A stretch of 64,000 bases of DNA, taken from contig CALIBQ010000035.1 of the NCBI GenBank assembly GCA_938049385.1, forward strand, positions 21,278 to 85,277, given 5' to 3'. The DNA is from an uncultured Anaerolineae bacterium (lineage in GTDB: Bacteria; Chloroflexota; Anaerolineae; JACIWP01). Under the pieces are notes generated by a model. It searched no databases and had not been told where the DNA came from. It saw nothing but the letters and a program-made list of their open reading frames with translations. Of this stretch, positions 43,082 to 61,843 are shown one piece after another (positions within the stretch are counted from its first letter, which is position 1; every line of letters begins with the position of its first letter). Both the position numbers and the translations under genes were made by a program.

Positions 43082-43848
43082 CGATGGGCCTGGAACCCGC
43101 CGATGAGACGCCGGCGCTGGTGGTCGTGGTCAACAGTGCCCTGGACTGGCATCGCGTGCGGGAGGAACGCTGGTACCGCATCCCACTCCGGCGCGCGCCG
43201 CGTCAGGCCGGCGCCGCCTTCCTCGCCTTCTATCACACCGGCATCTTTGCGGAAGAGCGGTGGAGCATCCGCTGGTACGCGCCGGTGCGCTCCGTACAGG
43301 TATTACCCCGATATGTTTTGCTACCTGACGAGCCGGCTCACCCGCGGGCGCCGGAATGGTACTTCCGCTACAGCCTGGGGCCGCTGGAGGAACTGCCGGC
43401 TCCCATCCCCAGCCGGCGGCTCCGCCGCATCTCTTTTATCCCCACCACCCTGGAACGCCTGCTCTCCGCCCAGGATGTCTCGCAACTGTGGATCAAACAG
43501 TCCCTGCGCGAGCGTCTCTGGGTCGAGATGAACCGGCAGGGCATTCATGCCGAGATGGATGCCGGCATCGAAGGCCTGCCGCACGAAACCTTTGATTTCG
43601 TCATCCCTTGTGCGCAGGGCGGTGTGGTGATTGACTGCCTCGAACGGGAAGAGGGGATTCAACGCGGATGTCGCGAGGCACTGCCGGCTTATGCGCCGGC
43701 GGATACCACAGCCGAGCTTGCTCGCCTGGGCTGGAGCCGGCTGTGTTTCACGCGCGCCGCAGTCCATGACATCGTGCACCGCATCTGGGAGGTGATTGAC
43801 GCCCATGGGGGCATGCGGATGAGGCCGGCAGTCACAGCCGGGCGATAA
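43078..43848 (+). CDS. WYRIP-type N-terminal domain (PUA/EVE-like, inferred) fused to a degenerate DUF559/Vsr-like nuclease domain
   Basis: ALVVVVN...DW..VREERWYRIP...FLAFYHT..F..E...IRWYAPV...EWYFRYSLG.L..LP.PIP...RRISFIPTT; C-terminal ERLW.EM...GI...FDFVIPC....VIDC...GWSRLCF. ATGA overlap with uvsE. Confidence 0.7.
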   Translation: MTMGLEPADETPALVVVVNSALDWHRVREERWYRIPLRRAPRQAGAAFLAFYHTGIFAEERWSIRWYAPVRSVQVLPRYVLLPDEPAHPRAPEWYFRYSLGPLEELPAPIPSRRLRRISFIPTTLERLLSAQDVSQLWIKQSLRERLWVEMNRQGIHAEMDAGIEGLPHETFDFVIPCAQGGVVIDCLEREEGIQRGCREALPAYAPADTTAELARLGWSRLCFTRAAVHDIVHRIWEVIDAHGGMRMRPAVTAGR

Positions 43849-44659
43849 TCTCACCCCGCCCGAACGTGCGCACGGCGATGGTCAAGAGCACGACATCCAG
43901 CACCCATATCACCAGGCCAATCAGCGCCACCGTAGGTGTGCTGAAATACAGGACCCCGCCCATCTGGCCGAACAACAGCAGGATGATGGGAATCACCACC
44001 AGCCCGCTTATCTGATAGGCGTCCTGAAAGCTCTTCGCTTTGGCGGAAACCAGGACGATGAACCCGATGCCCAGGGCGGCGGCCGCCGGCACCACCCACA
44101 GTATCAGCACCAGCCAGGCCAGGTTCGGGAAGAATATCCGCCCCAGCACCATGACGCCGCCGATGTTCACCACCACGCTGTACAGCACAAAGCACACCCA
44201 CGAAACGGTTATCGCCGGCAGGAACGCCGCCAGCACCTTGCCGATGAACAGCTCCGCCGTGGTGATAGGGGTGTAAAGCAGGGCCTCCAGCGTCTTGCGC
44301 TCCTTCTCGCCGGCGAAGCTGTCCGCCCCGATGACGCTGGAGACCATGAGCGGAATAATGAGGAAGAACGGGGCGAACATAAACATGGAGGAAAGCATCA
44401 GCCATGCCTGTTGGTCGTTCAGGCCGGCGAACAGGACGCTCAATTCCGCCGGCATATTGGCGAAAAACGCCCCCATCTCCTGCCGCAGTTCCTCCCCGGC
44501 ATCCATCGGCTCCAGATAGAAGGGGAGAAAGATCATCACCGCCGGCATTACAATCATCATGATCAGCGGCACAATGATGATGGGCAGGACCACCCCTTTG
44601 TTGCGCAGGGCAATCCGCAAATCTTTCCGCACAACGGCGCGTACCGCACGAGTGTTCAT
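43832..44659 (-). CDS. ABC-2 type exporter permease
   Basis: AVVRKDLR, ADSFAGEKERKTLEALLYTP, LFIGKVLAA, VSAKAKSFQDAYQ; 6 TM. Confidence 0.9.
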   Translation of the reverse strand: MNTRAVRAVVRKDLRIALRNKGVVLPIIIVPLIMMIVMPAVMIFLPFYLEPMDAGEELRQEMGAFFANMPAELSVLFAGLNDQQAWLMLSSMFMFAPFFLIIPLMVSSVIGADSFAGEKERKTLEALLYTPITTAELFIGKVLAAFLPAITVSWVCFVLYSVVVNIGGVMVLGRIFFPNLAWLVLILWVVPAAAALGIGFIVLVSAKAKSFQDAYQISGLVVIPIILLLFGQMGGVLYFSTPTVALIGLVIWVLDVVLLTIAVRTFGRGEIIARL

Positions 44660-45606
44660 GTGCTCCCTCCCCGGGCGTCGGCCTGAAGCTGGAAATAGAT
44701 GTCCTCCAGGGAGTGCTCGCGCGGTTTGACCGCATAAATCTCCGCGCCGGCCTCCACCAGCGCCCGCACCACCGCCGGCGTGCGCCCTTCCTCGTCCAGC
44801 AGGATGTGCAGTTCAGTATCGTCCACCTCGACCTGCGCCACACCTTCCACCCGCACCAGGGATGCCACTGCCTCTGCCGAAAGCGGCCGGCCCAGACGCA
44901 CGCTGATGCCGTGCCCATGCCAGATGCGCTGGGCCAGCTCCTCCGGGGTGCCCACAGCGATCAGCTCCCCGCGATTGATGACCCCCACCCGGTCGCACAG
45001 GCGTTCCGCCTCCACCAGGTTGTGGGTGCACAGGAAAATGGTGCGCCTCTCCTCCTGGCTGAGGTGCTCGATAAGCTCCGTCACCTGGCGGGCGGCCTCC
45101 GGGTCCAGGCCGGCGGTCGGTTCATCGAGGAACAGGATATCGGGCGCATGGATAAGGGCGCGCGCCAGCGCCAGGCGCTGTTTCATGCCCTTGCTGTAGC
45201 TGGCTACCTTATCATCCGCCCGCGCGCTCAGCTCGAACATCGCCAGCAGTTCCTCCACCCGCCGGCGCAGTACATCGGGGGGCACATCGTACAGCTCGCC
45301 GAAGAGAAAGAGGTTGTCGCGGGCGCTCAACGGCTCGTACAGGGCCGGCGATTCGGTCAGCACGCCAGTGCGTCGACGCACTGCCGGCCCCTGGGAGATA
45401 GGGTCCAGCCCAAGCACGCGGATTTCGCCGGCGGTGGGGTTCAGCACACCGTTGAGCAGACGGACGGTAGTGGTTTTGCCGGCGCCGTTCGGCCCTAGGA
45501 AGCCGAACACCTCCCCGCGAGCAATCTGCAGATTCACATCGTGCACCGCCACCAGCGCGCCGAAATGCCGCGTCAAGCGGCGGGTTTCAATCACCCATTC
45601 GGGCAT
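44656..45606 (-). CDS. ABC exporter ATP-binding protein
   Basis: GPNGAGKTT, YSKGMKQRL, LFLDEPTAGLDP, CTHNL. Confidence 0.95.
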   Translation of the reverse strand: MPEWVIETRRLTRHFGALVAVHDVNLQIARGEVFGFLGPNGAGKTTTVRLLNGVLNPTAGEIRVLGLDPISQGPAVRRRTGVLTESPALYEPLSARDNLFLFGELYDVPPDVLRRRVEELLAMFELSARADDKVASYSKGMKQRLALARALIHAPDILFLDEPTAGLDPEAARQVTELIEHLSQEERRTIFLCTHNLVEAERLCDRVGVINRGELIAVGTPEELAQRIWHGHGISVRLGRPLSAEAVASLVRVEGVAQVEVDDTELHILLDEEGRTPAVVRALVEAGAEIYAVKPREHSLEDIYFQLQADARGGST

Positions 45607-45639
45607 AATACAGGACCTTCTTTCGTGGAAGGGACGACG

Positions 45640-47109
45640 CTACTTGGTGCGGGAGCGCTCCCTAGCCTCAGCGGCTTCCAGAATCTGCTGGATTTTCTCG
45701 GCCGCGCCGTCGGGAAGAGGTACGGGCTTGTGCGATTCCAGGATGCGGTGCAGTTTGCGCTGGATGCGGTCCAGCATGGTAAGACTGCCGGCGGCCTCCC
45801 AGTTCACCCACGGATCGCGGTCCATCAGCGTCGGTATCCAGATTTCCGTGCGGCACAGCTTGGCTGTCTCTACCGCCGACATGAACTCGCCGCCCGGCCC
45901 TACCTGGTCAATCAGGTCCAGCATGATGGTCTCATCGGTGACCTCGATGCCGCGCATAATGCGGCGGGTCATGGCGATGATTTCATCGTTCATCACCAGC
46001 ATTTCCAGCGACCCAATATCCGCGCAGTCCAGGAATCCCACATCATGGACGAGGGTAGCGCCGCTCAGCGCCGAGAGCAGGACCTGGAAGGTGCTCTCGA
46101 TGGCTGCCTGCTGATCCACCACTTTGGCTTCGGAAGCGCCGGCGGTGCCCATGAACGGCAGGCCCAGGTAGCGCGAGATGTCGGACATGGCCGCGCTGTA
46201 AAGGCTCATCTCCGGTCCGCCGTACGCCGGCCGGCCCGTGCGCAGGTCCATCGGCTCCGGCACCCCACCAATGCACACCGGCGCGCCGCGCTTTTTCAAC
46301 TGCAGGATGGCCAGCCCGCTCAATGCCCCCGCCAGATATGCGACAATCAGGCCGGCGCCGGTCACCGGGCCGGTACTGCCGGCCGCCCCCCCGCCGATGT
46401 AAATCACAGGGATATCATGCTCCATGGCCCAGAAAACGTTTTCCAGGTCATGATCCGTGTGAATGAGCGGCGACTGCCAGGTGGAGAAGAAGCCGAACAG
46501 CGGCCGCCGGCGGAACGCTTCCGCGCTCCCCGTCACCGCCAGCGCAATGGCGTACAGGTCCTTGACCTGGTCCACCTGGAACGCCCAGGGCAGGACGGGC
46601 TTGGTCGTGTTGGCGATCATCTCGGCGTACTCATAGACCGAGGCCAAGGTATGGGTCACATCGCTGATCAGGCCCAGGGACATGACGTAGTCAATGTTGG
46701 GCAGGGCATCACAGACCAGTGCGGTCATGCCTGGGTCACCGCGGCGGGTCGGCCGGCGTTCCCCGGTATATGGGTCTATGAAATAGGTGCAGGTGGGGCC
46801 CGGGCCGTAATAGACCTTATCCGGGACGACGTGCAGGGCATGCCGGCCGTCGCGTCCCCAGATGGTGAAACTGCGCGGCGCGGCGGCAATGGCGTCCTGG
46901 ATAATATGCGGCGGGATGCGCACCCGCACCCCATCCACATCGGCGCCGGCCTTGGCCAGCAGATGCCGCGCCTCCTCGTTCAGCACGTTCACACCGGTGC
47001 GGGAAAGGCATTCCAGCGTCGCTTGGAACAGCTTCTCTATTTGCTCATCGGAAAGGACGCGGAACTGCGGCGTCTGAAGAGGGGCATAATTGGCATACAT
47101 CGCTACCAA
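45640..47109 (-). CDS. mttB: Trimethylamine/quaternary-amine:corrinoid methyltransferase, MttB superfamily, non-pyrrolysine (copy 2)
   Basis: LSDEQIEKLFQATLECLSRTGV, GPGPT, DLRTG...GGPE, GTAGASEAKVVDQQAAIE, GATLVHDVGFLD, SLEMLVMNDEI, VGPGGEF; no in-frame TAG. Confidence 0.9.
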   Translation of the reverse strand: MVAMYANYAPLQTPQFRVLSDEQIEKLFQATLECLSRTGVNVLNEEARHLLAKAGADVDGVRVRIPPHIIQDAIAAAPRSFTIWGRDGRHALHVVPDKVYYGPGPTCTYFIDPYTGERRPTRRGDPGMTALVCDALPNIDYVMSLGLISDVTHTLASVYEYAEMIANTTKPVLPWAFQVDQVKDLYAIALAVTGSAEAFRRRPLFGFFSTWQSPLIHTDHDLENVFWAMEHDIPVIYIGGGAAGSTGPVTGAGLIVAYLAGALSGLAILQLKKRGAPVCIGGVPEPMDLRTGRPAYGGPEMSLYSAAMSDISRYLGLPFMGTAGASEAKVVDQQAAIESTFQVLLSALSGATLVHDVGFLDCADIGSLEMLVMNDEIIAMTRRIMRGIEVTDETIMLDLIDQVGPGGEFMSAVETAKLCRTEIWIPTLMDRDPWVNWEAAGSLTMLDRIQRKLHRILESHKPVPLPDGAAEKIQQILEAAEARERSRTK

Positions 47110-47142
47110 TCCTTAATCATGAGATGAAGCTGGCCGGCATGG

Positions 47143-47469
47143 CTACGCCCGCAGGACAGCACTGCCGGTGAGCCAGACCGCATACACGACGATAAGCGTG
47201 CCAAGCGCGAAAAGGGCGGCTTTAAGCCGGCGGTCCGCCGCCGGCGAAATCCCCAGGTCCAGGATGATAGCGCGCACCCCCATCAAGGCGTGCGCCGTCA
47301 CTACCATCAGGAACACCGTCTCCAGCAAAAATATCACTGGATTCGATAAATAGTGTATCACATCGGCATAGGTGCGCAAGCCGCCCTCCACGACGAAATG
47401 GTTGGCGACCATATGCACCACCAGCAGGACGGTCAGCAGTATCCCCGAGAGTGCCTGCCATATCCACAT
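47143..47469 (-). CDS. sdhD: SdhD/FrdD-like hydrophobic membrane anchor
   Basis: WQALSGILL..LL.VHM, TYADVI..LSNP, AHALMGVRAIILD (heme His); 3 TM. Confidence 0.82.
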   Translation of the reverse strand: MWIWQALSGILLTVLLVVHMVANHFVVEGGLRTYADVIHYLSNPVIFLLETVFLMVVTAHALMGVRAIILDLGISPAADRRLKAALFALGTLIVVYAVWLTGSAVLRA

Positions 47470-47479
47470 CGCTGTGCCC

Positions 47480-47905
47480 TCACCCCATCATCAGAATCAT
47501 GCGCACGGCGACCGCGGTAAGCACAATAGAGAGCACGAAGGCCCCCCAGAACAGCTCAGCCTGCCGCCGGCTCCCCACGCCCAAGCCCAGCAGGATGACC
47601 CGCAGTCCGTTCAGGCCGTGATACAGCATGCCGAAGATGAGCACGCCGTCGAAGGCCACGAAAAGCGGCGAACGCGCCAATGCGATGAACGCATCCCATG
47701 CCTGCGGGCCGCGCGCCAGCGTGCTCAGCACTGTCAGGTGCAGGAAAAGGTAGAACACCAGCCCGATGCCGGTCAGCCGCATGAGGATGAAAGCCAGCCA
47801 GCCCTCGCGCCGGCCGTGCAGGTCCGCCCACGCCGCGGCGCGCCGCCACCAAGGCGTCCGAGCGACATGCTCCGAAACGGGCCGATAAGGGAGCGAGCGT
47901 TCCAT
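47480..47905 (-). CDS. sdhC: SdhC-like cytochrome b556 subunit
   Basis: FILMRLTGIGL..YL.LH, YHGLNGLRVIL (heme His); 3 TM. Confidence 0.85.
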   Translation of the reverse strand: MERSLPYRPVSEHVARTPWWRRAAAWADLHGRREGWLAFILMRLTGIGLVFYLFLHLTVLSTLARGPQAWDAFIALARSPLFVAFDGVLIFGMLYHGLNGLRVILLGLGVGSRRQAELFWGAFVLSIVLTAVAVRMILMMG

Positions 47906-47911
47906 CGGGCA

Positions 47912-48616
47912 TCACCTCCTTTGGGCTTCGGCGGGCTGACGCCGGCCGCGCAGGATCAGATAGCGCCTCAGCCAGCCGATGGCCTGCGATGGGTCCACAT
48001 GAGAGGGGCACACTTCCACGCATTCCATCACCGAGTGACAGCGCCAGGCGCCGTGGGCATCGCCGGCCAGCAGGCACAGGGAGCGGATATCCCTGCCGCG
48101 CGGCTCCTCCAGCAGACGCTTGATCATCGCCAGCGGCGAAGGCCCCAGGTACGCGCTGTCACTGCCCACCACGGGACAGGCGGACATGCATAGGCCGCAT
48201 TCGATGCAGTCCTCGAAGCGCGTGCCTTCTTCCCCGCCGGCGGTCAGCTCATCCCGCCGCACGTACGGCGCCTGGATGGCCGCCATGCGCTCCATCAGCG
48301 GCTTGACATCCACCACCAGATCGCCCACCCAGGGGAAGTTCCGCAGAGGCTCCAGGGTAACCGTCGCACCGTCCGGGAACTCCGCGATTGGCGTCAGGCA
48401 CATCAGCCGTTCGCGCCCGTTGACGCGCACACCGCACAGACCGCAGGAGGCGTGATGACAGGCATGCCGGAACAGCAGAGTCGGGTCCTGGGTCGCCCAG
48501 ACCTTCTGCACCGCATCCAGGATGTTCAGGTGCTCGTCCACAGTAATCCGATAGGTCTGGTAGGCCGCCGGCCGGCCGGGGCCACCGCGTAGAATGCACA
48601 GGTTCAGCGTCCGCAC
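47912..48616 (-). CDS. sdhB: SdhB/FrdB-like iron-sulfur subunit
   Basis: [2Fe-2S] ACHHASCGLC...LMC, LEPLRNFP.V.DLVVD, CIECGLCMSACP [4Fe-4S], WRCHSVMECVEVCP [3Fe-4S]; GTG start. Confidence 0.9.
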   Translation of the reverse strand: MRTLNLCILRGGPGRPAAYQTYRITVDEHLNILDAVQKVWATQDPTLLFRHACHHASCGLCGVRVNGRERLMCLTPIAEFPDGATVTLEPLRNFPWVGDLVVDVKPLMERMAAIQAPYVRRDELTAGGEEGTRFEDCIECGLCMSACPVVGSDSAYLGPSPLAMIKRLLEEPRGRDIRSLCLLAGDAHGAWRCHSVMECVEVCPSHVDPSQAIGWLRRYLILRGRRQPAEAQRR

Positions 48617-48645
48617 AATTCCCCTCCGAATGTCCAGGGTCCGGA

Positions 48646-49818
48646 TCAGACGTAAAAGGCATGATATGGCAGTAGCGGCACTTCGCGCGTGCGGCAGGGG
48701 TTGGTGATGCCCGTTGCCTCGTTGATGACATCCCCCATGACCTCGGCCATCAAGCGCGAGGTGGTGGTCTTGCCGCCGATAATGGAGAACAATCCGGGTG
48801 CACCGTCGCGCGCGTGGTTGAAGCAGGAGAAGCCGCGCGTGACGCCGCGCGCGCCAGGGTCTGCGGTCACCAATTGGCTGGATTCGTGGAGCAGCGGGCG
48901 CGCCGCGGCCGAAATCCCGCGCAGAGGGGCGGAGCGGAAGCCGGGGATGAACTCCTCGCCGGCCGCCAGCATTGCCTCGACCTGTTCGGGCGGAATGGCG
49001 ATGTAGTCCGGGTTTTCCACCGGCCAGGAAGTGGTGCCGACCACGGAGTTGCGCCGCTGGGGCACGATGATGCCGCCGTCACAGGGCGGGCAGAGCCGGT
49101 TGATGACGCGCCGCACCCACCGCCGGCCCACGGCGACCATCGTACCGGCCACCGGCAGGACGGCGATGTGCACGTGCGCCATGGCGCCGATGCGCCCGGC
49201 CCAGGGGCCGGCGGCATTGACCACCAGGTCCGCCCCGATGGCATATTCCCGCCCATCCCGACGATCGCGCACCTTCACCCCGCTCACCGAACGCCCGTTC
49301 CATACCAGGTCCACGACCTCGGTATAGGTGTGCACGGCCGCGCCGTGATGCTTGGCGGTTGCCAGGAAGGCCAGCGTGAAGTGGAAGGGATCAAAGACGC
49401 CGTCCTGCACCTTCACCGCCGCCAGGATGCGCGGGTTGAGGTTAGGCTCCAGCCGCAGGGCCTCTTTGATAGGAATCTCCTCCGCCGGCACGCCGGCCTG
49501 GGCGCATGCTTCGAGGAAGGCCTCTTTGTACGACAGGTCCTCCTCGTTCAGCGCCACGAACAGCCCGCCGTTCAGCTCCAGGATATCGGGCATGAGCTTG
49601 CGCATCAGCGCATTGTCCTCGGCGCACTCCCGCGCCGCCGGCGGGTCGTTCAGCACATAGCGCGCCCCGGAATGCAGTAGCCCGTGGTTGCGTCCTGTCG
49701 TCTCGCAGGCCACTTCACCCCGTTCGACCACGGTGACGCGGTAGCCGCGCAGGGTCAGGTCGTGGGCGACGGCGGCCCCGGTGGAGCCGGCGCCGATGAT
49801 GACCACATGCAGTGTCAT
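48646..49818 (-). CDS. glpA: GlpA-like FAD dehydrogenase (anaerobic glycerol-3-phosphate dehydrogenase subunit A family) lacking the C-terminal extension
   Basis: IIGAGSTG, DLTLRG..V.VVERG, TTGRNHGLLHSGARY, ARECAEDN, VVNAAGPWA, ARPL, GGKTTTSRLMAE...D; 390 aa, ending soon after CRTREVPL. Confidence 0.85.
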   Translation of the reverse strand: MTLHVVIIGAGSTGAAVAHDLTLRGYRVTVVERGEVACETTGRNHGLLHSGARYVLNDPPAARECAEDNALMRKLMPDILELNGGLFVALNEEDLSYKEAFLEACAQAGVPAEEIPIKEALRLEPNLNPRILAAVKVQDGVFDPFHFTLAFLATAKHHGAAVHTYTEVVDLVWNGRSVSGVKVRDRRDGREYAIGADLVVNAAGPWAGRIGAMAHVHIAVLPVAGTMVAVGRRWVRRVINRLCPPCDGGIIVPQRRNSVVGTTSWPVENPDYIAIPPEQVEAMLAAGEEFIPGFRSAPLRGISAAARPLLHESSQLVTADPGARGVTRGFSCFNHARDGAPGLFSIIGGKTTTSRLMAEVMGDVINEATGITNPCRTREVPLLPYHAFYV

Positions 49819-49851
49819 GAAGCCTCTCCAGCAAATGGGAACTGCCGCGTA

Positions 49852-51096
49852 TTATAGCCGAGAAAGGGCTTGGTCCAAATCGGCGATGATGTCCTCGGGG
49901 TCCTCCAGCCCCACCGACAGACGGATGAGGCCGTCATCAATGCCGGCGGCGGCGCGCTCCTCCGGCGTCATATGCTCATGGGTGATGGTCGCCGGATGCA
50001 TGCAGATGGTGCGGCTGGTGCCGAAGGTCACCGCGTGGATGATAAGCTGGAAGCTGTCGATGACTTTGGCCGCGCCGGCGATGCCGCCCGGCACTACAAA
50101 CGACAGCAGGCCGCCCTGTGCCTTCGCCTGACGCTTTGCCAGCTCATGTTGGGGGTGATCCGGCAGACCGGGATAATTGACCCAGCGCACCTTAGGATGA
50201 TCGCGCAGGAACTCCGCCACCTTCTGCGCGTTGGAGCTGTGCCGCTCCATGCGCAGGGAGAGCGTCTCGAGATACTGGAGGGTCAGCCACGATGACAGCG
50301 GGTCCATGATGGAGCCGACGAACTCCGTGGTGTTCCAGCGGATGTCCTCGCACAGGTCCTCCGGCCCGACGATGGCTCCGCCGATGACGGTAGCGTTGCC
50401 GGACAGAAACTTGGTGATGGAGAGCAGGATGATATCCGCGCCCAACTCCATCGGCTTCTGCAGGGCCGCCGTCAGCGTGGTGTTGTCCACCAGCAGGGGC
50501 ACGCCGTGCGCGTGAGCCACGTCAGCGACCGCCTTGATGTCGGTCACGAACAAGCAGGGGTTGCTGGGGGTCTCCACCCAGACCAGCTTGGTGCGTTTGT
50601 CGATCTGCTCCGCCCAGGAATCGGGGTTGGCCGGGTCCTTGACGAAGCGGAATTCCACGTTACAGCGCTCGGGGAAAATGCTGGAGGCCTGCTTGTATCC
50701 CTCGCCAAAGGTGTTGAGGGTCGTTACCACATTATCGCCCGGCCGAGCGATGGTGAAGATCAGGTTGAAGAGCGCTTGGGAGCCGGAGCCGGCCAACACA
50801 GCGCTCTCCCCGCCTTCCAGCGAGGCCAGCCGCTCTTCCAGCACCGCCGCCGTCGGGGTCTTGGTGCGGCCGTACACCGGATAAGGAATCTTGTCAAAGC
50901 GCTCGTAGGGATAGGTCATGGATTGGATGATGGGAACCGTGAAAGTATTGAACTTGCCCATATCCTTAAGCGGCCGAAAGCCGGCATGCAGGGCGCGCGT
51001 GTCGAATCCGAGATGTGCATCCGGCCGCCGGCGCTTCGGCGCCTTCGGGTCATATACCCACGGTTTGCGCATGAAGAACAGCTCTTCCTGGCTCAT
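49852..51096 (-). CDS. Cys/Met-metabolism PLP enzyme (cystathionine gamma-synthase / methionine gamma-lyase family), atypical active site
   Basis: TRALHAG, YGRTKTPT..VLEERLASLEG, SGSQA, VETPSNP, VDNT, LSITKFLSG (PLP Lys), VNYPGL, VTFG...TICMHPATITH, LIRLSVGLED. ATG 51096 with GGAGG SD. Confidence 0.9.
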   Translation of the reverse strand: MSQEELFFMRKPWVYDPKAPKRRRPDAHLGFDTRALHAGFRPLKDMGKFNTFTVPIIQSMTYPYERFDKIPYPVYGRTKTPTAAVLEERLASLEGGESAVLAGSGSQALFNLIFTIARPGDNVVTTLNTFGEGYKQASSIFPERCNVEFRFVKDPANPDSWAEQIDKRTKLVWVETPSNPCLFVTDIKAVADVAHAHGVPLLVDNTTLTAALQKPMELGADIILLSITKFLSGNATVIGGAIVGPEDLCEDIRWNTTEFVGSIMDPLSSWLTLQYLETLSLRMERHSSNAQKVAEFLRDHPKVRWVNYPGLPDHPQHELAKRQAKAQGGLLSFVVPGGIAGAAKVIDSFQLIIHAVTFGTSRTICMHPATITHEHMTPEERAAAGIDDGLIRLSVGLEDPEDIIADLDQALSRL

Positions 51097-51164
51097 TCTG
51101 ATTCTCCTCCGTTTGTTTCCATGACAGCGATTATGGAAGACATTTGGCGATCCCAAAGCCGGCA

Positions 51165-53240
51165 TCAGGCACTGCGGCGAATCACGGGATGAATGGCGTG
51201 CAGGGTGTCGGCCGGCAGATGACAGTAGATGATATGGTCCATACTCATGCGGCGAGCCGGCGGCTCCTCACGCTCGCAGATTTCCCCGATTTTGTAGGGA
51301 CAGCGCGTGTGGAAGCGGCATCCCGCCGGCGGATTCACCGGGCTGGGAATCTCCCCGCTTAAGCGGATGAACTCCTGCTTCAGCGTCGGATCCGGCCGCG
51401 GCACTGCCGCCAGCAGAGCGGCGGTATACGGATGGCTGGGGGGCGAGAAGATCTCCTCCACCTGGCCGTACTCCACGATCTTGCCCAAATACATCACCGC
51501 CACATAGTCGGAGAAAAAGCGCACACTGCTCAGATCATGCGATATCAGGATCATCGCCGTCTGATATTCCTGCTGTATCTCCTGCAGTAGCGTCAGCACC
51601 GCCGCCTGTACGGAGACGTCCAGCGCCGATACCGGCTCATCGCAGATGACCATCTTCGGGTTGGAGGCGATGGCACGGGCGATGCCCACACGCTGTTTCT
51701 CCCCACCGGAGAGCTGTCTGGGCAGGCGGTAATAATAGGTCTCGTTGAGCTTGACTGCCTCGAGCAACTGCACGACGCGTCCGTACACCTCGTCCGCCGG
51801 CACCACGCGGAAGCGCTTCAACGACATGGCGATCTGGTCGCCCACAGTGTAAGACGGGTTCAGTGTGCCGTCTGGGTTCTGGAAGACCATCTGGAGATGG
51901 CGGATGACCTCGCGCCGGCGGCGCTCCACCGGCTCATCCGAGATGTCAATGCCCAGAAACTCCATTTTGCCGCCCGTAGGCGCCTCCAGCCCCACGATGG
52001 TGCGCGCCAGCGAGCTTTTGCCGCATCCCGATTCTCCCACGATGCCCAGGGTATAGCCGCAGTCCACCGAGAGGCTCACGCCGTCCACCGCCCGCACGTA
52101 GCGCCGCTTTTCCAGACCGATCAGACTGCGCACGCTGGTGAAGGGCACCGGGTAATAGGTGCGGACATCCTCCACCTTGAGGATGGGTTCCTCGGCGGCC
52201 GGCTTGGCACAGACGTACGTGCTTGACTGCGCCGGCTTTTTCGTCCACAGCGGCGTCTCCAGCCACTCGCGCGCCCGCCAACAGCGGGAGAAATGACCCG
52301 GGGTAATCTCCTCGAAAGAGGGCCGGCCTTCCGAACACTCCGGCGCGGCATACTCACAGCGCGGGGCGAAGATACAGCCGGCCGGCACCTCGGCCGGCGA
52401 GGGCACCCGCCCAGGTATCGGGTGCAGTTCGCGCGTGCCGCGCGGGGCATCCACATCCGGCAGACAGCGCATCAGCCCCACCGTATAAGGATGCAGAGGG
52501 TGCGAGTAAATCTGCGCCGTGGGCGCTAGCTCCACCAGCTCGCCGGCGTACATCACGCCGACCTTGTCCGCCACGCGCGCGATGACCCCCAGGTTGTGGC
52601 TGATATACAGCGTCGCCGTGCGGAACTTCTCCTGCAATTCGGCCACCAGGTCCAGCACCGCCGCCTCCACCGTTACATCCAGCGCAGTGGTCGGCTCATC
52701 CATGATGAGCAGTTCCGGCTGGTTGAGCATGGCCATGGCGATGCAGACGCGCTGCTGCTGGCCGCCGGAGAGCTGATGGGGATAGCGGACAAGGATGCTC
52801 TCCGGCTCCGGCATATAGACATCCTCCAGGGCCTTGATACAGCGCCGGCGAATCTCATCCGCCGGCAGGTCCGCATGGGCCGCCAGCGCCTCGGCCAACT
52901 GCCGGCCGATGCGCATGGTGGGGTTCAGGGAGGACATCGGCTCCTGATAGACCATGGCGATATGGGCGCCGCGCAGTTCCCGCAGGCTTTTCTCGTCCAG
53001 GCTCTGCATGTCCTGCCCCTTGAAGATAATGCGCCCGTTGGTGATGCGGCCGTTCCTGCCCAGGAATCCCACCAGGGAATAGGCCACCGTGCTTTTGCCA
53101 CAGCCCGATTCCCCCACCAGCCCCAGGTTCTCCCCAGGCATGATCTCGAAGCTCACATCCCGCACCGCCTGGATGAAGCCCTTGCGGGTCTTATACGCAA
53201 TGGCCAGGTTCTGCACCGAAAGGATCGGCTCTTCCTTCAT
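51165..53240 (-). CDS. Fused DppD-DppF oligopeptide/nickel-type ABC ATPase
   Basis: Two NBDs (GESGCGKST / GESGCGKSS; LSGGQQQR / LSGGEKQR; DEPTT / DEPVS), each with a C-terminal Cys-containing oligo_HPY region. Confidence 0.93.
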   Translation of the reverse strand: MKEEPILSVQNLAIAYKTRKGFIQAVRDVSFEIMPGENLGLVGESGCGKSTVAYSLVGFLGRNGRITNGRIIFKGQDMQSLDEKSLRELRGAHIAMVYQEPMSSLNPTMRIGRQLAEALAAHADLPADEIRRRCIKALEDVYMPEPESILVRYPHQLSGGQQQRVCIAMAMLNQPELLIMDEPTTALDVTVEAAVLDLVAELQEKFRTATLYISHNLGVIARVADKVGVMYAGELVELAPTAQIYSHPLHPYTVGLMRCLPDVDAPRGTRELHPIPGRVPSPAEVPAGCIFAPRCEYAAPECSEGRPSFEEITPGHFSRCWRAREWLETPLWTKKPAQSSTYVCAKPAAEEPILKVEDVRTYYPVPFTSVRSLIGLEKRRYVRAVDGVSLSVDCGYTLGIVGESGCGKSSLARTIVGLEAPTGGKMEFLGIDISDEPVERRRREVIRHLQMVFQNPDGTLNPSYTVGDQIAMSLKRFRVVPADEVYGRVVQLLEAVKLNETYYYRLPRQLSGGEKQRVGIARAIASNPKMVICDEPVSALDVSVQAAVLTLLQEIQQEYQTAMILISHDLSSVRFFSDYVAVMYLGKIVEYGQVEEIFSPPSHPYTAALLAAVPRPDPTLKQEFIRLSGEIPSPVNPPAGCRFHTRCPYKIGEICEREEPPARRMSMDHIIYCHLPADTLHAIHPVIRRSA

Positions 53241-53285
53241 GCGTCTTTCTTCCCATGGATGATAGCGTCTGTGCCGGCCGGCTTC

Positions 53286-54167
53286 TCACTGGTACCGCAT
53301 CGTTTCCTCGCGCAGGCCGTCGGCGAACAGGTTCAGCCCAACGACCAGCGTGACGATGGCCACCGTCGCGGACAGCACTGGCCAGACATTGGTGGTCATA
53401 AACTTATGCCCTTCCTGGACCATCCCGCCCCAATCAGGTGTGGGCGGCGGCAGACCCAGGCCGAGGAAGCCCAGCGTACCGATATAGAAGGCGGCATAGC
53501 CGATGCGCAGGAGCAAATCCACGATCAGCGGTCCGCGGCAGTTGGGAAGTATTTCGCGGAACATGATGTGGACAGGACGATCCCCGCGCAGGCGCGCCGC
53601 GGCGATATATTCCCGGGTGCGGATATCCAGCGTCAGGGCACGGATAAGACGCGCAATGCCCGGCGCACCACCGATGGCGATGGCGATGACCACGTTGACA
53701 GGAGATGCGCCCACCGCCGAAATGATAATCATATACAGGAGGATGGTAGGGAAGGCCATGATGGAGTCGAGGATGCGCATCACGACCTCGTCCACCCAGC
53801 CGCCGAAGTAGCCGGCCGGCAGGCCCAGTATCATGCCCAGCAGAAAAGCCACCCCCACCGAGATGGGCGCCAGGAGCAGGATGGTGCGAGCGCCAAAGGC
53901 CACGCGCGCCCACACATCCCGCCCCAGATGGTCGGTCCCCAGAATGTGTTGCGGCGATGGGCCTTTATTCACATTCTTATAGTCCTGTTCGTACGGCGTG
54001 TATTGAGTCAGGTACGGGGCAAAAATCGCGATGAAAACCCATATCAGCACAATGGCCAACCCCAGCACCGCCGTCGGGGAGGAGAATATCAGCCCCACCC
54101 CTTCTTTGAAGCGCCGCCAGCGCAGTTGTGCCGGCGTGATGCGTATGAACGTGCTCTCTACAGCCAT
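53286..54167 (-). CDS. DppC/OppC-type ABC permease
   Basis: HILGTDHLGRDVW, EYIAAARLRG, ILPN, FLGLGLPPPTPDWG. Confidence 0.93.
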   Translation of the reverse strand: MAVESTFIRITPAQLRWRRFKEGVGLIFSSPTAVLGLAIVLIWVFIAIFAPYLTQYTPYEQDYKNVNKGPSPQHILGTDHLGRDVWARVAFGARTILLLAPISVGVAFLLGMILGLPAGYFGGWVDEVVMRILDSIMAFPTILLYMIIISAVGASPVNVVIAIAIGGAPGIARLIRALTLDIRTREYIAAARLRGDRPVHIMFREILPNCRGPLIVDLLLRIGYAAFYIGTLGFLGLGLPPPTPDWGGMVQEGHKFMTTNVWPVLSATVAIVTLVVGLNLFADGLREETMRYQ

Positions 54168-54180
54168 GTTCCTCTCCCGG

Positions 54181-55491
54181 TTATGCGTACCGCACGCGAG
54201 GATTCAGGAACGAGTAGATGATATCCGCAATCAATTGGGTGCCGACCGCCAGCAGGATCAGGAACATGGAGGCGGCCTCAATGGCATAGACATCCTTATA
54301 CAGCGCGGCGTTGAGGATGAAGTTCCCCAGGCCGGGATATCCGAACACCGATTCGACCACTACCAGACCGCCGATGAGCCAGTTCACGTGGAGCATAATA
54401 ACCGTGATCGGCGCCAGCAGTGAGTTGCGGAGCACATGGCGTAGGACCACCTGAGTACGGGAAAGGCCTTTGAGGACGGCGGTGCGGACGTAGTTGCTCT
54501 GCACCACTTCCACCACGCTGGCGCGAGTGATGCGCAGGATGTACCCCATTTCCACCAGGCTGGCGGTCAGCACCGGCAGAACCAGCATCTTGGGGTTATC
54601 CAGGATGGCAGTTTGCGAAGCAAAAACTGTGGCACCCGGCAGGACCTTAAGCCATAGGCTGAAGATCATGATCAGGAAGATGCCCGTGGCGAAATCTGGC
54701 GAAGCAGTTGTTACCAGGCCGAAGAGGGAAAGGATGCGGTCTGCCGGCTTCCCCTCGTTCAGGCCGGCCAGCAGGCCCAATAAGAGACCCAGCGGGATGG
54801 ACACCAGGAAGGCCAGCGCCGCCAGAATGCCCGAGTTCTTCAGCCGGCTGGCGATCAGCTCGCTCACCGGGGCGCGATAGCGCAGGGAAACGCCGGCGTC
54901 CCCTCTCAGCAGTCCTTTGGTCAGGGGGATGTAATCTACCGGCGCGTTCTCGGACTTGCGCCAGCCGGAATATTCGTAGCGGTACTCGACGCCTCCCTGC
55001 CCCTTGATCCACAGCGCGGCGCGGTTGGCATTGTCCACCCCCCAGAAATACTGGATGCCGCTTTCATCCGTCCTCCATGCGCCCTCGTCCGGCACCCCAA
55101 CGGTAGACCCGTCCGGCTGGCGGATATACTTGTACAATTGGCCGTCCTGTATGCCCCAGCGCACCAGGCTCCCATCCTCATCCACGGCCCACCACTGGCG
55201 GAAGCGCTCGACGATGCCCTGCTGGATGACGATTTCCTTCAGCGGCCGGCCAATTTTGCGCTCTGCCTGCCAGTCGGAACCGAACAGCCAGGAGATATAG
55301 CGGGTCGCCACCGGCCGGTCCAGACCCAACTGGTTTTCCATGGACTTTTCCTGTTCCGGCGTGGCATAGGCACCCAGGATATTGCGGGCCACGTTGCCCG
55401 GCGCAATCTCGACCACTGCGAAGATAACGATCGAGACCACCAGCATGGTGATGACCATGGTGAACAGTCGGCGGATGATGTACCTTGCCAT
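54181..55491 (-). CDS. DppB/OppB-type ABC permease with a large extracytoplasmic insertion
   Basis: MARYIIRRL, PGNVARNILG, LGLDRP...RY..WL, GDAGVS, YVRTAVLKGLS...HVLRN, ESVFGYPGLG. Start at ATG 55491. Confidence 0.9.
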   Translation of the reverse strand: MARYIIRRLFTMVITMLVVSIVIFAVVEIAPGNVARNILGAYATPEQEKSMENQLGLDRPVATRYISWLFGSDWQAERKIGRPLKEIVIQQGIVERFRQWWAVDEDGSLVRWGIQDGQLYKYIRQPDGSTVGVPDEGAWRTDESGIQYFWGVDNANRAALWIKGQGGVEYRYEYSGWRKSENAPVDYIPLTKGLLRGDAGVSLRYRAPVSELIASRLKNSGILAALAFLVSIPLGLLLGLLAGLNEGKPADRILSLFGLVTTASPDFATGIFLIMIFSLWLKVLPGATVFASQTAILDNPKMLVLPVLTASLVEMGYILRITRASVVEVVQSNYVRTAVLKGLSRTQVVLRHVLRNSLLAPITVIMLHVNWLIGGLVVVESVFGYPGLGNFILNAALYKDVYAIEAASMFLILLAVGTQLIADIIYSFLNPRVRYA

Positions 55492-55553
55492 GCAAACCTT
55501 TCCTCTGTGTGGTTGGCGCAGACAGTAGTCGCCGGCGCCGACTCCCTCCCCTA

Positions 55554-55590
55554 CCGCTCCTGGCACCTATAGTATCAGTGCCAGGAGCGG
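55554..55590. other. Perfect 13-bp inverted repeat inside the operon (stabiliser or attenuator)
   Basis: CCGCTCCTGGCAC / GTGCCAGGAGCGG with an 11-nt loop. Confidence 0.55.
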
Positions 55591-55621
55591 CTGTGGAAAG
55601 GGGAAAGAGAAAGGAGGCGCT

Positions 55622-57079
55622 TCATTTGCGAGAAGTGCGGTTGATCCACTCCTGTTCGCGCTCCACAATCTTGTGGATGTCGCGCTGGATGTCCGCCGGC
55701 AGTGGCTCCGGCTTGTGGCTCTCCAGGATGCGGTCAATCTCCTGTGCGGCGCGCCCTTCCATGGTCGGCCGGCCCCTCGCCTCCCAGGAGGCGAAATCGC
55801 CCTTCTCCAGCAGTTTGCCGTAGAACGGCTCGCGGAAGTGGCGAAGGGTGTGCTCATGGTTCAGGTAGTTGCCCGTTGGGCCCAGCTCGTCAATCACATC
55901 CAGCGCCAGCGTCTCATCGTTCACCAGCACGCCGGCGGTAGCCGCCCGCAGGAAGCCCAGCCAGTCGTTCGCCATGACCATAATCTGCAGGGAACCCATC
56001 AGGCCAGAATCCATGAAGCCGACGTCATGCACAATGTTGGCGCCGTGAATGAGCGCCGTCATCAAGCTCAGCACCACCTCGCCGCCGGCCTGCTGGTCCA
56101 GCACCTTGGCATCGGTGGAGCCGCCCAGCCCGAACACCGGCAGGTTGTAGTACTTGCCCATGCTGGTGGGCACGCCCTGCTCGTCCGCCAGCACATAGTT
56201 GCCCACCATGGTCTTCAGGTTGTACGGGCCGCCGTTCCAGCCGGGCACCGCGATGGGCACGCCTTCCCGCACGAGCTGGGAGAGCACCACACCCAGGAGG
56301 ATGCCGGCGTTCATGGAGGCCATACAGCCGGCGGTGGTGGCCGGGGAGTTGACGCCGCCGGCGTTCAGCGGGATCCAGAGCTGGGGCAGTCCCTTCTCCG
56401 CCAGATACATGCACTTCTGCAGGGCTTCCTGGTTGATGATCATGCCCGAGGTGACGTTGATGTAGCAAGTGGCGAAGGGGCGCCGCTGGAAGCTCTCGGC
56501 ACCGCCGGCGACAATCTCGCACATCTCGACCGCCGCCTTCGTCCCCTCAAAGTCCGGCGTGACGAAGACGATGGGCTTGGTGGTGTTGTTCAGCATCACT
56601 TCCATCTGGTAGCGGTCGTAAATGCGCTGGTCCACATCCTCGGGCAGGAACATGGACATGACAAAGTCGATCTCGGGGAGCGCGTCCTGGACGATGGCGG
56701 CATCGCGCACATCGCTGAGGAGCGGCCGGCGGCGCTGGCCGGTGCGGTGGTCGAGGATGTTCAGGCAGTCCGAACCGCCGCCGAAGTACGAGTTGTACCC
56801 CCAGGCGCGGATGGCCACCTTGCCGTTGCGGTCGTACAGCGTCATGCGCTTGGGAGCGGTCTGCAGTGCCCAATTGACCAGATGCTCCGGCACGCGCACG
56901 CGGATGCCGTCCACCTTGGCGCCGGCCTTGGCCAAAATCTCGCGCGCCTTTTCATCGTGAACGTCAACGCCCGTCCGTTCCAGGATCTCCAGGGTCGCGA
57001 CGTGGATTTTCTCGCATTCTTGCTGGCCCATACGGGCATAATGGGCGCTCGTCATGCTCAAGCCGTGTGTTTCGATCAT
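55622..57079 (-). CDS. mttB: MttB-superfamily methyltransferase, non-pyrrolysine (copy 1)
   Basis: EKIHVATLEILERTGV, FGGGSDC, GLGGSTDAKVLDQQAGGE, GANIVHDVGFMDSG, GPTGNYL..EHTL..FR; no in-frame TAG. Confidence 0.9.
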   Translation of the reverse strand: MIETHGLSMTSAHYARMGQQECEKIHVATLEILERTGVDVHDEKAREILAKAGAKVDGIRVRVPEHLVNWALQTAPKRMTLYDRNGKVAIRAWGYNSYFGGGSDCLNILDHRTGQRRRPLLSDVRDAAIVQDALPEIDFVMSMFLPEDVDQRIYDRYQMEVMLNNTTKPIVFVTPDFEGTKAAVEMCEIVAGGAESFQRRPFATCYINVTSGMIINQEALQKCMYLAEKGLPQLWIPLNAGGVNSPATTAGCMASMNAGILLGVVLSQLVREGVPIAVPGWNGGPYNLKTMVGNYVLADEQGVPTSMGKYYNLPVFGLGGSTDAKVLDQQAGGEVVLSLMTALIHGANIVHDVGFMDSGLMGSLQIMVMANDWLGFLRAATAGVLVNDETLALDVIDELGPTGNYLNHEHTLRHFREPFYGKLLEKGDFASWEARGRPTMEGRAAQEIDRILESHKPEPLPADIQRDIHKIVEREQEWINRTSRK

Positions 57080-57165
57080 CTTACCTTCCTCACGCGAAGT
57101 AACTGGACCACAATCGGATAAGTTACATTTATATTATACACCATTCCGTCCGAGCACGGACAAAA

Positions 57166-57195
57166 TGGTAGGGGCGGGCCGGCCCGCCCCTACCA
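57166..57195. repeat. Perfect 30-bp palindrome of GTAG-REP type
   Basis: TGGTAGGGGCGGGCC|GGCCCGCCCCTACCA. Confidence 0.75.
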
Positions 57196-57213
57196 CGGCA
57201 GTGCGTACAGGGA

Positions 57214-58932: not shown

Positions 58933-59277
58933 CGGATCCTCCTTTCCTGAACGCGAGAAGATTTAGTGAAACCGGACGAGTGAGTCAACGAAGGATAAGC
59001 TACTGCAGAACACAGAGAGGGGAGCATGTGGATGGGAGCACAGACAGCGGGCTTGACCGGGTTCCGACTGCCGGCCAAACAGGAACACATGCTCGCGTGA
59101 CACGAACGGGAGCCGTTGTGTGGAATGGACTGCTGTTCATTTGGCATCAGCCGGCGGCAGTTTCGGTGCCCCATTGTCTCCTCGAATCAACCAGACCTCT
59201 TGGACCGGCCTGTCCGGGCATGCGTCCCCCGACGGGCATCCCCCAACATGGCGAATAGTGTATATTTCCGCACGCCC

Positions 59278-59320
59278 ATTTGATATATCAGATTATAGTT
59301 CAAATGTGATGATTTGTCAA
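59278..59320 (-). promoter_or_regulatory. Consensus sigma70 promoter of the mttB operon with an adjacent palindromic operator
   Basis: Minus strand TTGACA (59320-59315)-N17-TATAAT (59297-59292); palindrome TGATATATCA (59281-59290) over the predicted start site. Confidence 0.8.
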
Positions 59321-59413: not shown

Positions 59414-60085
59414 ATGGTCACCGCAGAGCAAACCGCCACCACCATCAAATACAAGATTTACAAGGAAATTCGGCGCTCCATCATCATGCAGCACCTGCGC
59501 CCTGGCGAGCGCCTCTCTGTGGAAGACCTTGCCCGGCAGTACGGCACCAGCATCACCCCGGTGCGCGAGGCTCTGCAAATGCTGGATCAAGAGGGCTTGG
59601 TGACCATCAAGCCGCGCTCCGGTTATTTCGTCACCCGCCTGACGTTGAAACAACTGCGCGACCTGCTGGAACTGCGCGGCATCCTGGAGCTGGCCTCTGT
59701 GGAGCAGGCCGCTCAGCGCATCACCCCCGAACAGCTTGCCCGCTTGGAAAGGGTACATGCCGGCTATACCGGTGACGATGAGGAATCGTACGACCGCTAC
59801 ACAGATGAGAACCGCGAGTTTCACTATCTGATCGCCGAAGCCGCCGGCAACGAGGAACTGGCCAATCTTCTGCGCCATATCCACGAGCGTCTGGCCCGCT
59901 ACATGGTCATGCGGCGCGGCGGCCAATCCCAGCTTCATACCCACGCCCGGATTCTGGATGCACTGCGCCGGCATGACGTCTCTGCCGCCCGCCAAGCTAT
60001 GTGGGAGGAAATCACCGAGACGCGCGATGCCATTCTGGAGAGGGTAATCCGCGAGGAATCATCCGCTTGGCAGTTGCAGTCCTAA
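59414..60085 (+). CDS. GntR-family (FCD) transcriptional regulator
   Basis: LRPGERLSVEDLARQYGTSITPVREALQML..EGLV..KPRSGYFV; FCD ENREFHYLIAEAAGNEEL...H. Confidence 0.95.
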   Translation: MVTAEQTATTIKYKIYKEIRRSIIMQHLRPGERLSVEDLARQYGTSITPVREALQMLDQEGLVTIKPRSGYFVTRLTLKQLRDLLELRGILELASVEQAAQRITPEQLARLERVHAGYTGDDEESYDRYTDENREFHYLIAEAAGNEELANLLRHIHERLARYMVMRRGGQSQLHTHARILDALRRHDVSAARQAMWEEITETRDAILERVIREESSAWQLQS

Positions 60086-61818: not shown

Positions 61819-61843
61819 CGTCGCTATCCCCTTTCTTTCGCCT

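Follow-up and report, generated by a model that had tools for sequence, protein, structure and literature searches.

A 64-kb stretch of Anaerolineae DNA, analyzed as a whole and called the window here, contains a four-gene cassette that most probably encodes one membrane-bound respiratory dehydrogenase, a glycerol-3-phosphate (G3P):menaquinone oxidoreductase of a "GlpA-SdhBCD" type; we put the probability of this reading at roughly 0.78. The SdhB/SdhCD module of complex II is usually regarded as inseparable from SdhA. Judging by sequence, this electron-transfer module would serve an unrelated DAAO-fold dehydrogenase in the cassette, and a clean, widespread case of this kind would inform models of respiratory-complex evolution by module swapping. 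The genes (Table 1) follow each other in the order GlpA, SdhB, SdhC, SdhD with intergenic spacings of 29, 6, and 10 nt. An earlier note on this DNA had described a GlpA-type flavoprotein gene followed by an sdhB gene and two anchor genes; the open reading frames were recovered at exactly the coordinates it gave, and the domain matches agree with its description.

Table 1. Genes of the cassette and the promoter-like site upstream of it, in window coordinates
Feature	Coordinates	Strand	Description
Short GlpA-type FAD flavoprotein	48646..49818	-	390 aa; DAAO fold, no BFD [2Fe-2S] tail
SdhB/FrdB-family iron-sulfur subunit	47912..48616	-	234 aa; GTG start; [2Fe-2S], [4Fe-4S], and [3Fe-4S] ligands
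SdhC-like membrane anchor	47480..47905	-	141 aa; conserved R43, H56, H96
SdhD-like membrane anchor	47143..47469	-	108 aa; conserved H19, H24, H60, D71
Sigma-70 consensus promoter, upstream of the SBP gene	59292..59320	-	12/12 consensus positions

The flavoprotein matches Pfam DAO (E value of 8.5e-52) and the NCBIfam GlpA model TIGR03377 (E value of 3.7e-123), the latter only over profile positions 1 to 377 of 530. Lacking the C-terminal domain, it scores 411.8 bits on TIGR03377, below the equivalog cutoff of 552.8. Alignment with 36 canonical GlpA proteins (502 to 557 aa) identified the missing segment as the Cys-rich BFD-like tail. The four-Cys C-terminal BFD-like [2Fe-2S] domain of canonical GlpA is absent from the protein, which stops at residue 390, and this bears out the claim in the note of a chain ending there without the Fe-S extension. 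Its C-terminal end carries a conserved motif, C375-R-T-x-E...L382..Y385. The GlpA signature that had been claimed, as opposed to that of SdhA/FrdA, was likewise confirmed by the TIGR03377 match and by the lack of pairwise similarity to Morganella FrdA (BLASTP E value of 2.4, not significant). Homology of the FAD domain of short GlpA (GlpA') with SdhA, considered as an explanation of docking, was dropped on the same BLASTP result.

What remains of the protein is thoroughly GlpA-like. The motif TGRNHGLLHSGARY occupies residues 41 to 54. In common with E. coli-type GlpABC, it has the catalytic DAAO-fold domain (38 to 44% identity), the GRNHxLLHSGxRY motif, and 60 positions with at least 95% conservation in short and canonical GlpA alike, with only one fixed difference between the two forms. 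All 60 are intact in the window flavoprotein, the Arg, Lys, and His set among them, and it shows zero deviations at the positions at least 95% conserved across the short family. In the tree, all short forms group in a single clade (SH-aLRT support of 100). The AlphaFold2 (AF2) model of the flavoprotein has a pLDDT of 80 and a short C-terminal helix at residues 385 to 388; its closest folds in the PDB are GlpD and GlpO (TMq of 0.78 to 0.84), with aerobic GlpD (E. coli 2QCU; Bacillus halodurans 3DA1; TMq of 0.73 to 0.84) as the top structural match. GlpD would share its substrate with the window copy; unlike the cassette, it forms a monotopic homodimer, carries a cap domain of roughly 110 aa at its C terminus, and reduces quinone directly, without Fe-S or heme subunits.

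The second protein has Fer2_3 and Fer4_8 domains, scores 170.7 bits on TIGR00384 (cutoff of 88), stays below every SdhB or FrdB equivalog cutoff, and has E. coli FrdB as its top PDB match (1.2e-32). As expected of the three-cluster SdhB that had been claimed, all 11 cluster cysteines are present (C53/58/61/73, C137/140/143/203, and C147/193/199); they are kept across 46 distinct relatives, all of which also have the family signature C53-H54-H55. Both anchors match Sdh_cyt, the SdhC-like one at 3.3e-13 and the SdhD-like one at 3.8e-11. The former also passes TIGR02970 (57.6 bits against a cutoff of 52.3), with chain C of the diheme Mycobacterium smegmatis Sdh2 (6LUM_C) as its nearest solved chain; the latter matches the same chain at 4.3e-06. 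Conserved His residues, two in the SdhC-like and three in the SdhD-like anchor (Table 1), would fit the earlier description of both as heme-His anchors: four or five lie at the expected helices as read from sequence, from which the heme content itself cannot be read. The three-cluster SdhB and the paired anchors, each with three helices and two conserved His residues, resemble M. smegmatis Sdh2 (PDB 6LUM; complex II type A). In contrast to Sdh2, the cassette lacks SdhA, the covalent-FAD motif, and SdhF, and its predicted substrate is not succinate.

A synteny search, which the earlier note had proposed as a check, found sdhB, sdhC, and sdhD directly downstream of short GlpA in 35 of the 40 species-representative genomes that encode it and beside canonical long GlpA at none of 38 loci. 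Since the same four-gene order recurs with the short form and never with the long one, the cassette is a conserved unit and not a chance neighborhood. Fourteen loci were retrieved from nine relatives at 55 to 96% identity, and every one of them has the cassette. Short-form cassette genomes span classes of Chloroflexota as well as Actinomycetota, Verrucomicrobiota, and Dormiibacterota, and the short forms from the scan of genome contigs were bacterial only. Four short GlpA genes stand alone without sdhBCD, all in one subclade. An SdhA/FrdA gene was seen in the flank of a single relative locus (L025), not adjacent to the cassette. Two further genes recur beside relatives of the cassette: a 210-aa gene, weakly methyltransferase-like, after SdhD in many glycerol-type loci, and a coupled gene of 143 to 148 aa upstream in L007 and L013. 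Both lack a homologue in the window, so we placed them outside the core enzyme.

At some loci the genes are joined more tightly by translational coupling, with 4-nt overlaps between GlpA' and SdhB' (L009 and L014). Natural GlpA'::SdhB' fusion proteins form 15 clusters of 664 to 737 aa, carried by Actinomycetota, including Cellulomonas sp. SG140, and by a Bacillota metagenome-assembled genome (MAG). SdhC and SdhD follow right after the fusion gene in all four loci examined (L095 to L098), in three of them (L095, L096, and L097) with a 4-nt overlap between the fusion gene and SdhC. An AF2 model of one natural fusion has a pLDDT of 80 and a pTM of 0.68, against our own estimate of about 0.58 for unplaced domains; this is suggestive of a defined GlpA'-SdhB' domain placement. 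The fusions also bear on the alternative that SdhB'C'D' are parts of a split succinate dehydrogenase or fumarate reductase with a distant SdhA, next to an unrelated GlpA-like protein that uses another electron route. SdhB' does pass the SdhB/FrdB subfamily model, as such an enzyme should; however, it reaches no SdhB or FrdB equivalog cutoff, short GlpA is left without another electron outlet, GlpA' is naturally fused to SdhB' in some genomes, and the adjacency is kept in 35 of 40. We consider a split enzyme very improbable.

Using phmmer with Yersinia GlpB and GlpC and Morganella FrdA as queries, we found no GlpB, GlpC, or SdhA/FrdA homologue in the 64 kb, as the note had maintained for both sets of partners. 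Its central proposal, that a GlpA-type module replaces SdhA and feeds electrons through SdhB and a heme anchor to quinone, is supported by a cassette conserved across several phyla, by the start/stop overlaps and the fusions, and by the lack of an adjacent SdhA gene. In such an enzyme, short GlpA would oxidize sn-glycerol-3-phosphate to dihydroxyacetone phosphate (DHAP) on non-covalently bound FAD and, having lost the BFD-type [2Fe-2S] tail, would dock on the SdhB-like subunit at its N-terminal ferredoxin domain. Electrons would pass from [2Fe-2S] to [4Fe-4S] to [3Fe-4S] and into the two-subunit anchor, which probably holds two b hemes and within which menaquinone would be reduced. The substrate and the quinone-linked role would be those of E. 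coli-type GlpABC. Unlike GlpABC, the cassette has neither the BFD [2Fe-2S] tail nor adjacent glpB and glpC genes, and its electron outlet would be SdhB with heme anchors instead of GlpC, an Fe-S protein with CCG domains. GlpA-CoxG of Sulfolobus acidocaldarius (Saci_2032/2031) is comparable in that its flavoprotein, also of the GlpA cluster, is truncated, has no Fe-S tail, and depends on a separately encoded partner for membrane association. However, that partner is a small CoxG-like protein without Fe-S clusters or heme, unlike SdhBCD, and the S. acidocaldarius flavoprotein ends in a tail of some 50 aa, unlike the window protein.

The gene context of the relatives bears on the substrate. About 23 short-GlpA species loci, and closer relatives of the window copy at 66 to 69% identity, lie within glycerol/dihydroxyacetone operons (GlpF, GlpK, and DhaKLM). 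The order GlpF-DhaK-DhaL-GlpK stands directly upstream of the cassette in L001, L004, L009, and L011 and in the roughly 23 species loci, with DhaM/HPr/EI nearby in these same loci; the Bacillota locus reads GlpP-GlpF-GlpK-[fusion]-SdhC-SdhD-DhaKLM. The glycerol operons of most relatives and an active site in common with canonical GlpA point to G3P as the substrate, which the earlier note had left open and need not have. The same operons argue against a menaquinol:DHAP reductase, an enzyme working mostly in the reverse direction to make G3P for lipid synthesis or to serve as an electron sink. Reversibility is a property of complex II enzymes, and an anaerobic host is probable; both would suit this direction. 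However, the reduction of DHAP by menaquinol is unfavorable because the standard potential of G3P/DHAP is about -190 mV and that of menaquinone about -74 mV, and in the relatives the cassette sits in catabolic operons adjoining genes for glycerol kinase and dihydroxyacetone kinase. Mainly reverse operation is thus highly improbable.

An arrangement of this type has been described from archaea. In Thermofilum pendens and relatives, a flavoprotein of the GlpA cluster is followed by sdhB, sdhC, and sdhD and was read as a membrane-bound G3P dehydrogenase; "GlpA-SdhBCD (T. pendens)" was drawn as a complex from gene order, with a GlpA (Tpen_1127, A1RZ95) that "almost entirely lacks a C-terminal extension" (Schmerling et al. 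2025, Commun Biol 8:539; PMC11962113). The window flavoprotein is likewise essentially without the extension, and homologues of sdhB, sdhC, and sdhD lie directly downstream of its gene. As judged from these features, the window cassette is a bacterial member of an architecture already noted by synteny in Thermofilum archaea, and is therefore new as a bacterial member only. The earlier note had not known the architecture from characterized enzymes; its wording still holds because no enzyme of this type has been characterized, but as a first record it is preceded by the T. pendens gene order (PMC11962113). Literature searches for a bacterial description of GlpA-SdhBCD returned nothing beyond the Thermofilum note. 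In contrast to the archaeal cluster, which was inferred from synteny, the type is found here in at least four named bacterial phyla, and fusions occur in Actinomycetota and in a Bacillota MAG; kinship with the Thermofilum clade is putative. Bacterial glpA has been stated to be always accompanied by glpBC (PMC11962113); these results go beyond that statement and in part contradict it.

At present, these genes carry the label "FAD-dependent oxidoreductase" alongside "succinate dehydrogenase subunits," or simply "glycerol-3-phosphate dehydrogenase." As a consequence, metabolic models built from MAGs of Chloroflexota and other groups may predict succinate dehydrogenase too often and connect glycerol respiration wrongly. 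An easy entry to biochemistry and structure would be the natural fusions, such as that of the isolate-named Cellulomonas sp. SG140.

The window itself differs from the glycerol-type loci in its gene context. Many relatives have glycerol-catabolism genes and the glycerol-kinase link that goes with GlpA-SdhBCD, whereas none of glpK, glpF, and dhaKLM is found in the 64 kb. The operon that holds the cassette contains two methyltransferases of the MttB family, a PLP enzyme of the Cys/Met family, and an Opp-type importer, a context common only to one 95%-identical MAG. The site upstream of the SBP gene (57214 to 58932; Table 1) is the only strong promoter-like site on the minus strand within 43.5 to 59.6 kb, which makes co-transcription of the cassette with the MttB, PLP, and ABC genes probable; the gene gaps on either side of it are 33 nt or less. 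In addition, the window flavoprotein has Gly at position 249, a residue that is Asp in 96% of the short proteins and 100% of the canonical ones. It shares Gly249 with the three other members of its subclade (L012, L013, and L007), and glycerol genes are near none of the four loci. Counting against the main reading are this missing glycerol context, the MttB/PLP/Opp operon, the D249G change, and the four solitary short GlpA genes.

These features would fit a complex that forms as proposed but whose copy in this lineage was recruited to an MttB/PLP/ABC pathway, oxidizing a substrate other than G3P, such as an N-methyl amino acid (dimethylglycine or sarcosine) or another 2-hydroxy or phospho compound derived from the imported molecule. 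Apart from the single consensus promoter with short gene gaps, the 64 kb without glycerol genes, and D249G in four copies away from such genes, the DAAO-fold relatives of the flavoprotein include sarcosine and dimethylglycine oxidases. Recruitment to a new substrate is nevertheless quite unlikely in our judgment: besides retaining every near-invariant position of the short family and of canonical GlpA, the protein is 66 to 69% identical to copies in glycerol operons and nested with them in a clade with a support of 99, and its 30 deviations from the consensus are near the 21 to 23 of these relatives.

Building on the preferred G3P:menaquinone oxidoreductase, a broader and tentative proposal has two parts: that GlpA'-SdhBCD is the main, as yet unrecognized, respiratory G3P dehydrogenase in Chloroflexota and in several further bacterial phyla, and that the D249G copy of this thermophilic Anaerolineae lineage has moved into the single-promoter operon with the two MttB proteins, the PLP enzyme of the gamma-lyase family, and the Opp-type importer. 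There it would be the quinone-linked step of a new catabolic pathway, acting on G3P from an imported glycerol- or glycerophospho-conjugate or on a new substrate. Taken together, we regard the two parts as unlikely. Among the sequencing runs that contain the window stretch, there are no RNA runs; the stretch occurs in DNA metagenomes from hot springs and from one marine study.

Four genes on the minus strand form a compact cassette, at the positions that an earlier note had assigned to them from the sequence alone. They encode a short GlpA-type flavoprotein (GlpA') and SdhB-, SdhC-, and SdhD-like proteins (SdhB', SdhC', and SdhD'), separated in this order by gaps of 29, 6, and 10 nt. The flavoprotein is indeed of the GlpA type: it has a Pfam DAO match, it matches the NCBIfam GlpA equivalog TIGR03377 at an E value of 3.7e-123, and its residues 41 to 54 form the motif TGRNHGLLHSGARY, most positions of which are near-invariant in short and canonical GlpA. 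It falls below the equivalog cutoff because it covers only profile positions 1 to 377 of 530. Aligned with 36 canonical GlpA proteins (502 to 557 aa), it ends just ahead of the cysteine-rich BFD-like [2Fe-2S] tail, in agreement with the note's reading that the C-terminal Fe-S extension is missing. SdhB' passes the SdhB/FrdB subfamily model (170.7 bits; cutoff, 88) and reaches no equivalog cutoff for SdhB or FrdB in the profile search; all 11 cluster cysteines are present, as expected for the complete three-cluster protein described earlier. The closest solved structure for both anchors is the SdhC chain of the diheme Mycobacterium smegmatis Sdh2 (6LUM). No homologs of GlpB, GlpC, GlpK, GlpF, DhaK, or DhaL were found within the 64-kb window, nor any of FrdA/SdhA, which bears out the reported lack of GlpB/GlpC partners and of SdhA.

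Features of the window and of related loci (L numbers, loci fetched from relatives)
Feature	Location	Strand	Basis or remark
GlpA-type flavoprotein, 390 aa	49818-48646	minus	ORF
SdhB-like iron-sulfur subunit, 234 aa	48616-47912	minus	ORF, profile match
SdhC-like anchor, 141 aa	47905-47480	minus	ORF, Sdh_cyt match
SdhD-like anchor, 108 aa	47469-47143	minus	ORF, Sdh_cyt match
Apparent single operon, ~15.5 kb	43832-59320	minus	12/12 promoter, short gaps
Sigma-70 consensus	59320-59292	minus	ahead of gene series
GntR/FCD regulator	59414-60085		divergent
UbiD-family decarboxylase and URO-D-family protein	60472-62929		just past GntR gene
Aldehyde:ferredoxin oxidoreductase	30437-32290		
DhaM (EIIA-man)-HPr-enzyme I polypeptides	L009:7434-9968, L011:4856-7354, L014:1273-3801		~830-845 aa
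~210-aa gene after SdhD	L001:10622-11254, L004:10690-11340		
143- to 148-aa protein	L007:9094-9540, L013:2457-2888		upstream of short GlpA
Split cassette (Anaerolinea MAG)	L051:7804-9249		~1.4 kb between sdhB and sdhC-sdhD

The best 120 database clusters resembling the flavoprotein (55 to 96% identity) all have lengths of 383 to 421 aa. A search for glpA-sdhBCD synteny, as suggested in the earlier note, found SdhB-, SdhC-, and SdhD-like genes directly downstream in 14 of 14 fetched loci (nine relatives). When each prokaryotic species was represented by one genome, a scan gave 80 loci, which fall cleanly into two groups. The short form (379 to 402 aa) accounts for 40 loci, all with at least 51% identity; sdhB-C-D follows immediately in 35, the contig ends after sdhB in 1, and GlpA stands alone in 4. 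The long form, with the tail, accounts for 38 complete loci with at most 44% identity, and sdhBCD is found in none of them. Two contig-truncated fragments (L056 and L072) were left out of both length classes. Most hosts of the short form belong to the Chloroflexota (Anaerolineae, Thermoflexales, Ktedonobacteraceae, Chloroflexia, and Limnocylindria), with further copies in MAGs labeled Actinomycetota, Verrucomicrobiota, and Dormiibacterota.

Maximum-likelihood analysis places the short forms in a single clade (SH-aLRT, 100); the four stand-alone genes (L036, L037, L038, and L049) group in one subclade, compatible with one event of relocation or loss. In these four loci, GlpA is convergent with a gene reading as a LacI-type regulator, and sdhBCD is absent within 6 kb; the partner may be encoded elsewhere, or these proteins may work differently. 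The GlpA of the split cassette (table) is on a long branch. Among the 50%-identity representatives there are also GlpA relatives of 920 to 1,000 aa (P0162, P0181, P0185, P0201, P0209, P0217, and P0224), which may be GlpA-GlpB fusions.

With a concatenate of the window GlpA' and SdhB' as the query, we found natural GlpA'::SdhB' fusions in 15 clusters, with lengths of 664 to 737 aa and spanning 95 to 97% of the query; the sources include Cellulomonas sp. SG140 and a Bacillota MAG. In the four fusion loci examined, SdhC and SdhD follow with 4-nt overlaps. The Bacillota locus has the order GlpP antiterminator-GlpF-GlpK-fusion-SdhC-SdhD-DhaK-DhaL-DhaM, a Bacillus-type glp arrangement in which the fusion occupies the usual place of glpD. 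The AlphaFold2 model of one natural fusion (pLDDT, 80) has a disordered linker and a pTM of 0.68, above the ~0.58 that by our own estimate unplaced domains would give; this is no more than suggestive. SdhB'C'D' could instead serve an SdhA encoded elsewhere, but the gene fusion, the start-stop overlaps, and the strict adjacency argue strongly against this. Because of the same three features, a complex of GlpA' with SdhB'C'D' is by far the simplest reading, and they support the earlier proposal that a GlpA module would feed electrons through SdhB to quinone.

In Thermofilum-related archaea, sdhB, sdhC, and sdhD homologs follow glpA, and "GlpA-SdhBCD (T. pendens)" has been drawn as a putative complex, while in Bacteria glpA is described as consistently co-occurring with glpBC (Schmerling et al., Commun Biol 2025, PMC11962113). 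No report of the bacterial form or of the fusions, and no biochemical work, came up in our literature search. The window locus, with a gene order like that of Thermofilum, adds a new bacterial representative to a type so far known from gene order alone. The statement that this architecture is not among characterized enzymes thus stands, but its novelty is lower than first thought because it is already in print for archaea. This putative enzyme type is widespread and misannotated, and with its natural fusions it should be easy to test.

The 11 cysteines are conserved in 46 of 46 distinct SdhB' sequences. At the first [2Fe-2S] ligand (residues 53 to 55), all 46 unfused cassettes have Cys-His-His, whereas in Escherichia coli FrdB and SdhB this Cys is followed by Arg; the actinobacterial fusions have Cys-Cys-His. 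The signature may mark the flavoprotein-facing surface. Conserved residues are kept in both anchors (R43, H56, and H96 in SdhC'; H19, H24, H60, and D71 in SdhD'), consistent with the heme histidines noted previously, and the pattern resembles that of diheme type A anchors such as 6LUM, in which two three-helix subunits supply four axial His. Electrons would pass from GlpA' through the SdhB' Fe-S clusters and the putative heme anchors to menaquinone. The potentials of glycerol-3-phosphate (G3P)/dihydroxyacetone phosphate (~-190 mV) and menaquinone (~-74 mV) make this reduction exergonic, and unlike succinate:menaquinone reductases, the enzyme would not rely on proton motive force.

Many relatives are encoded in glycerol operons. 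Two loci (L001 and L004) have the order GlpF(MIP)-DhaK-DhaL-GlpK-cassette-...-DhaM-HPr-EI; L009 and L011, whose flavoproteins are 68 and 66% identical to that of the window, have the same order with DhaM-HPr-EI fused, and L014 (69%) keeps the fused gene and a partial GlpK. In these Anaerolineae glycerol/dihydroxyacetone operons, the fused protein is a single polypeptide whose gene immediately precedes the cassette. Overall, genes for GlpK, Dak, or PtsI flank 23 of the 40 species-level short-form loci. Short and canonical GlpA share 60 positions with a conservation of at least 95% in each form and show a single fixed difference (H19 in the short form versus R). Wherever conservation within the short family reaches 95%, the window protein has the conserved residue. 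Its AlphaFold2 model (pLDDT, 80; pTM, 0.82) has GlpD and GlpO as best structural matches. Given the operon context and a catalytic domain that looks unchanged, the family substrate is most likely G3P. Glycerol-type loci (L001, L004, and about 13 species loci) have a gene of ~210 aa, with weak similarity to class I SAM methyltransferases, directly after SdhD; it often overlaps SdhD and is usually followed by a DJ-1/PfpI gene. No homolog is present in the window.

The window cassette itself lies outside any glycerol operon. A perfect sigma-70 consensus precedes a series of genes for SBP_bac_5, MttB-1, two Dpp-type permeases, a double ATPase, a Cys/Met-family PLP enzyme (437 aa; under all equivalog cutoffs), the cassette, MttB-2, and an ABC-2 exporter, with no convincing internal signal, and this layout is shared only with one 95%-identical MAG contig. 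No glycerol genes lie close to the cassettes of the nearest subclade (the window, L012, L013, and L007), which share D249G at a position where Asp is found in 96% of short-form and 100% of canonical sequences. These features could indicate that the window copy has changed its substrate, which we consider unlikely, as the subclade nests among glycerol-operon copies in a clade with a support of 99. For the MttB genes, the URO-D-family protein is a possible methyltransferase partner. In sister lineages without glycerol genes (L007 and L013), the short GlpA is translationally coupled to an upstream gene whose product has weak similarity to nucleoside 2-deoxyribosyltransferase.
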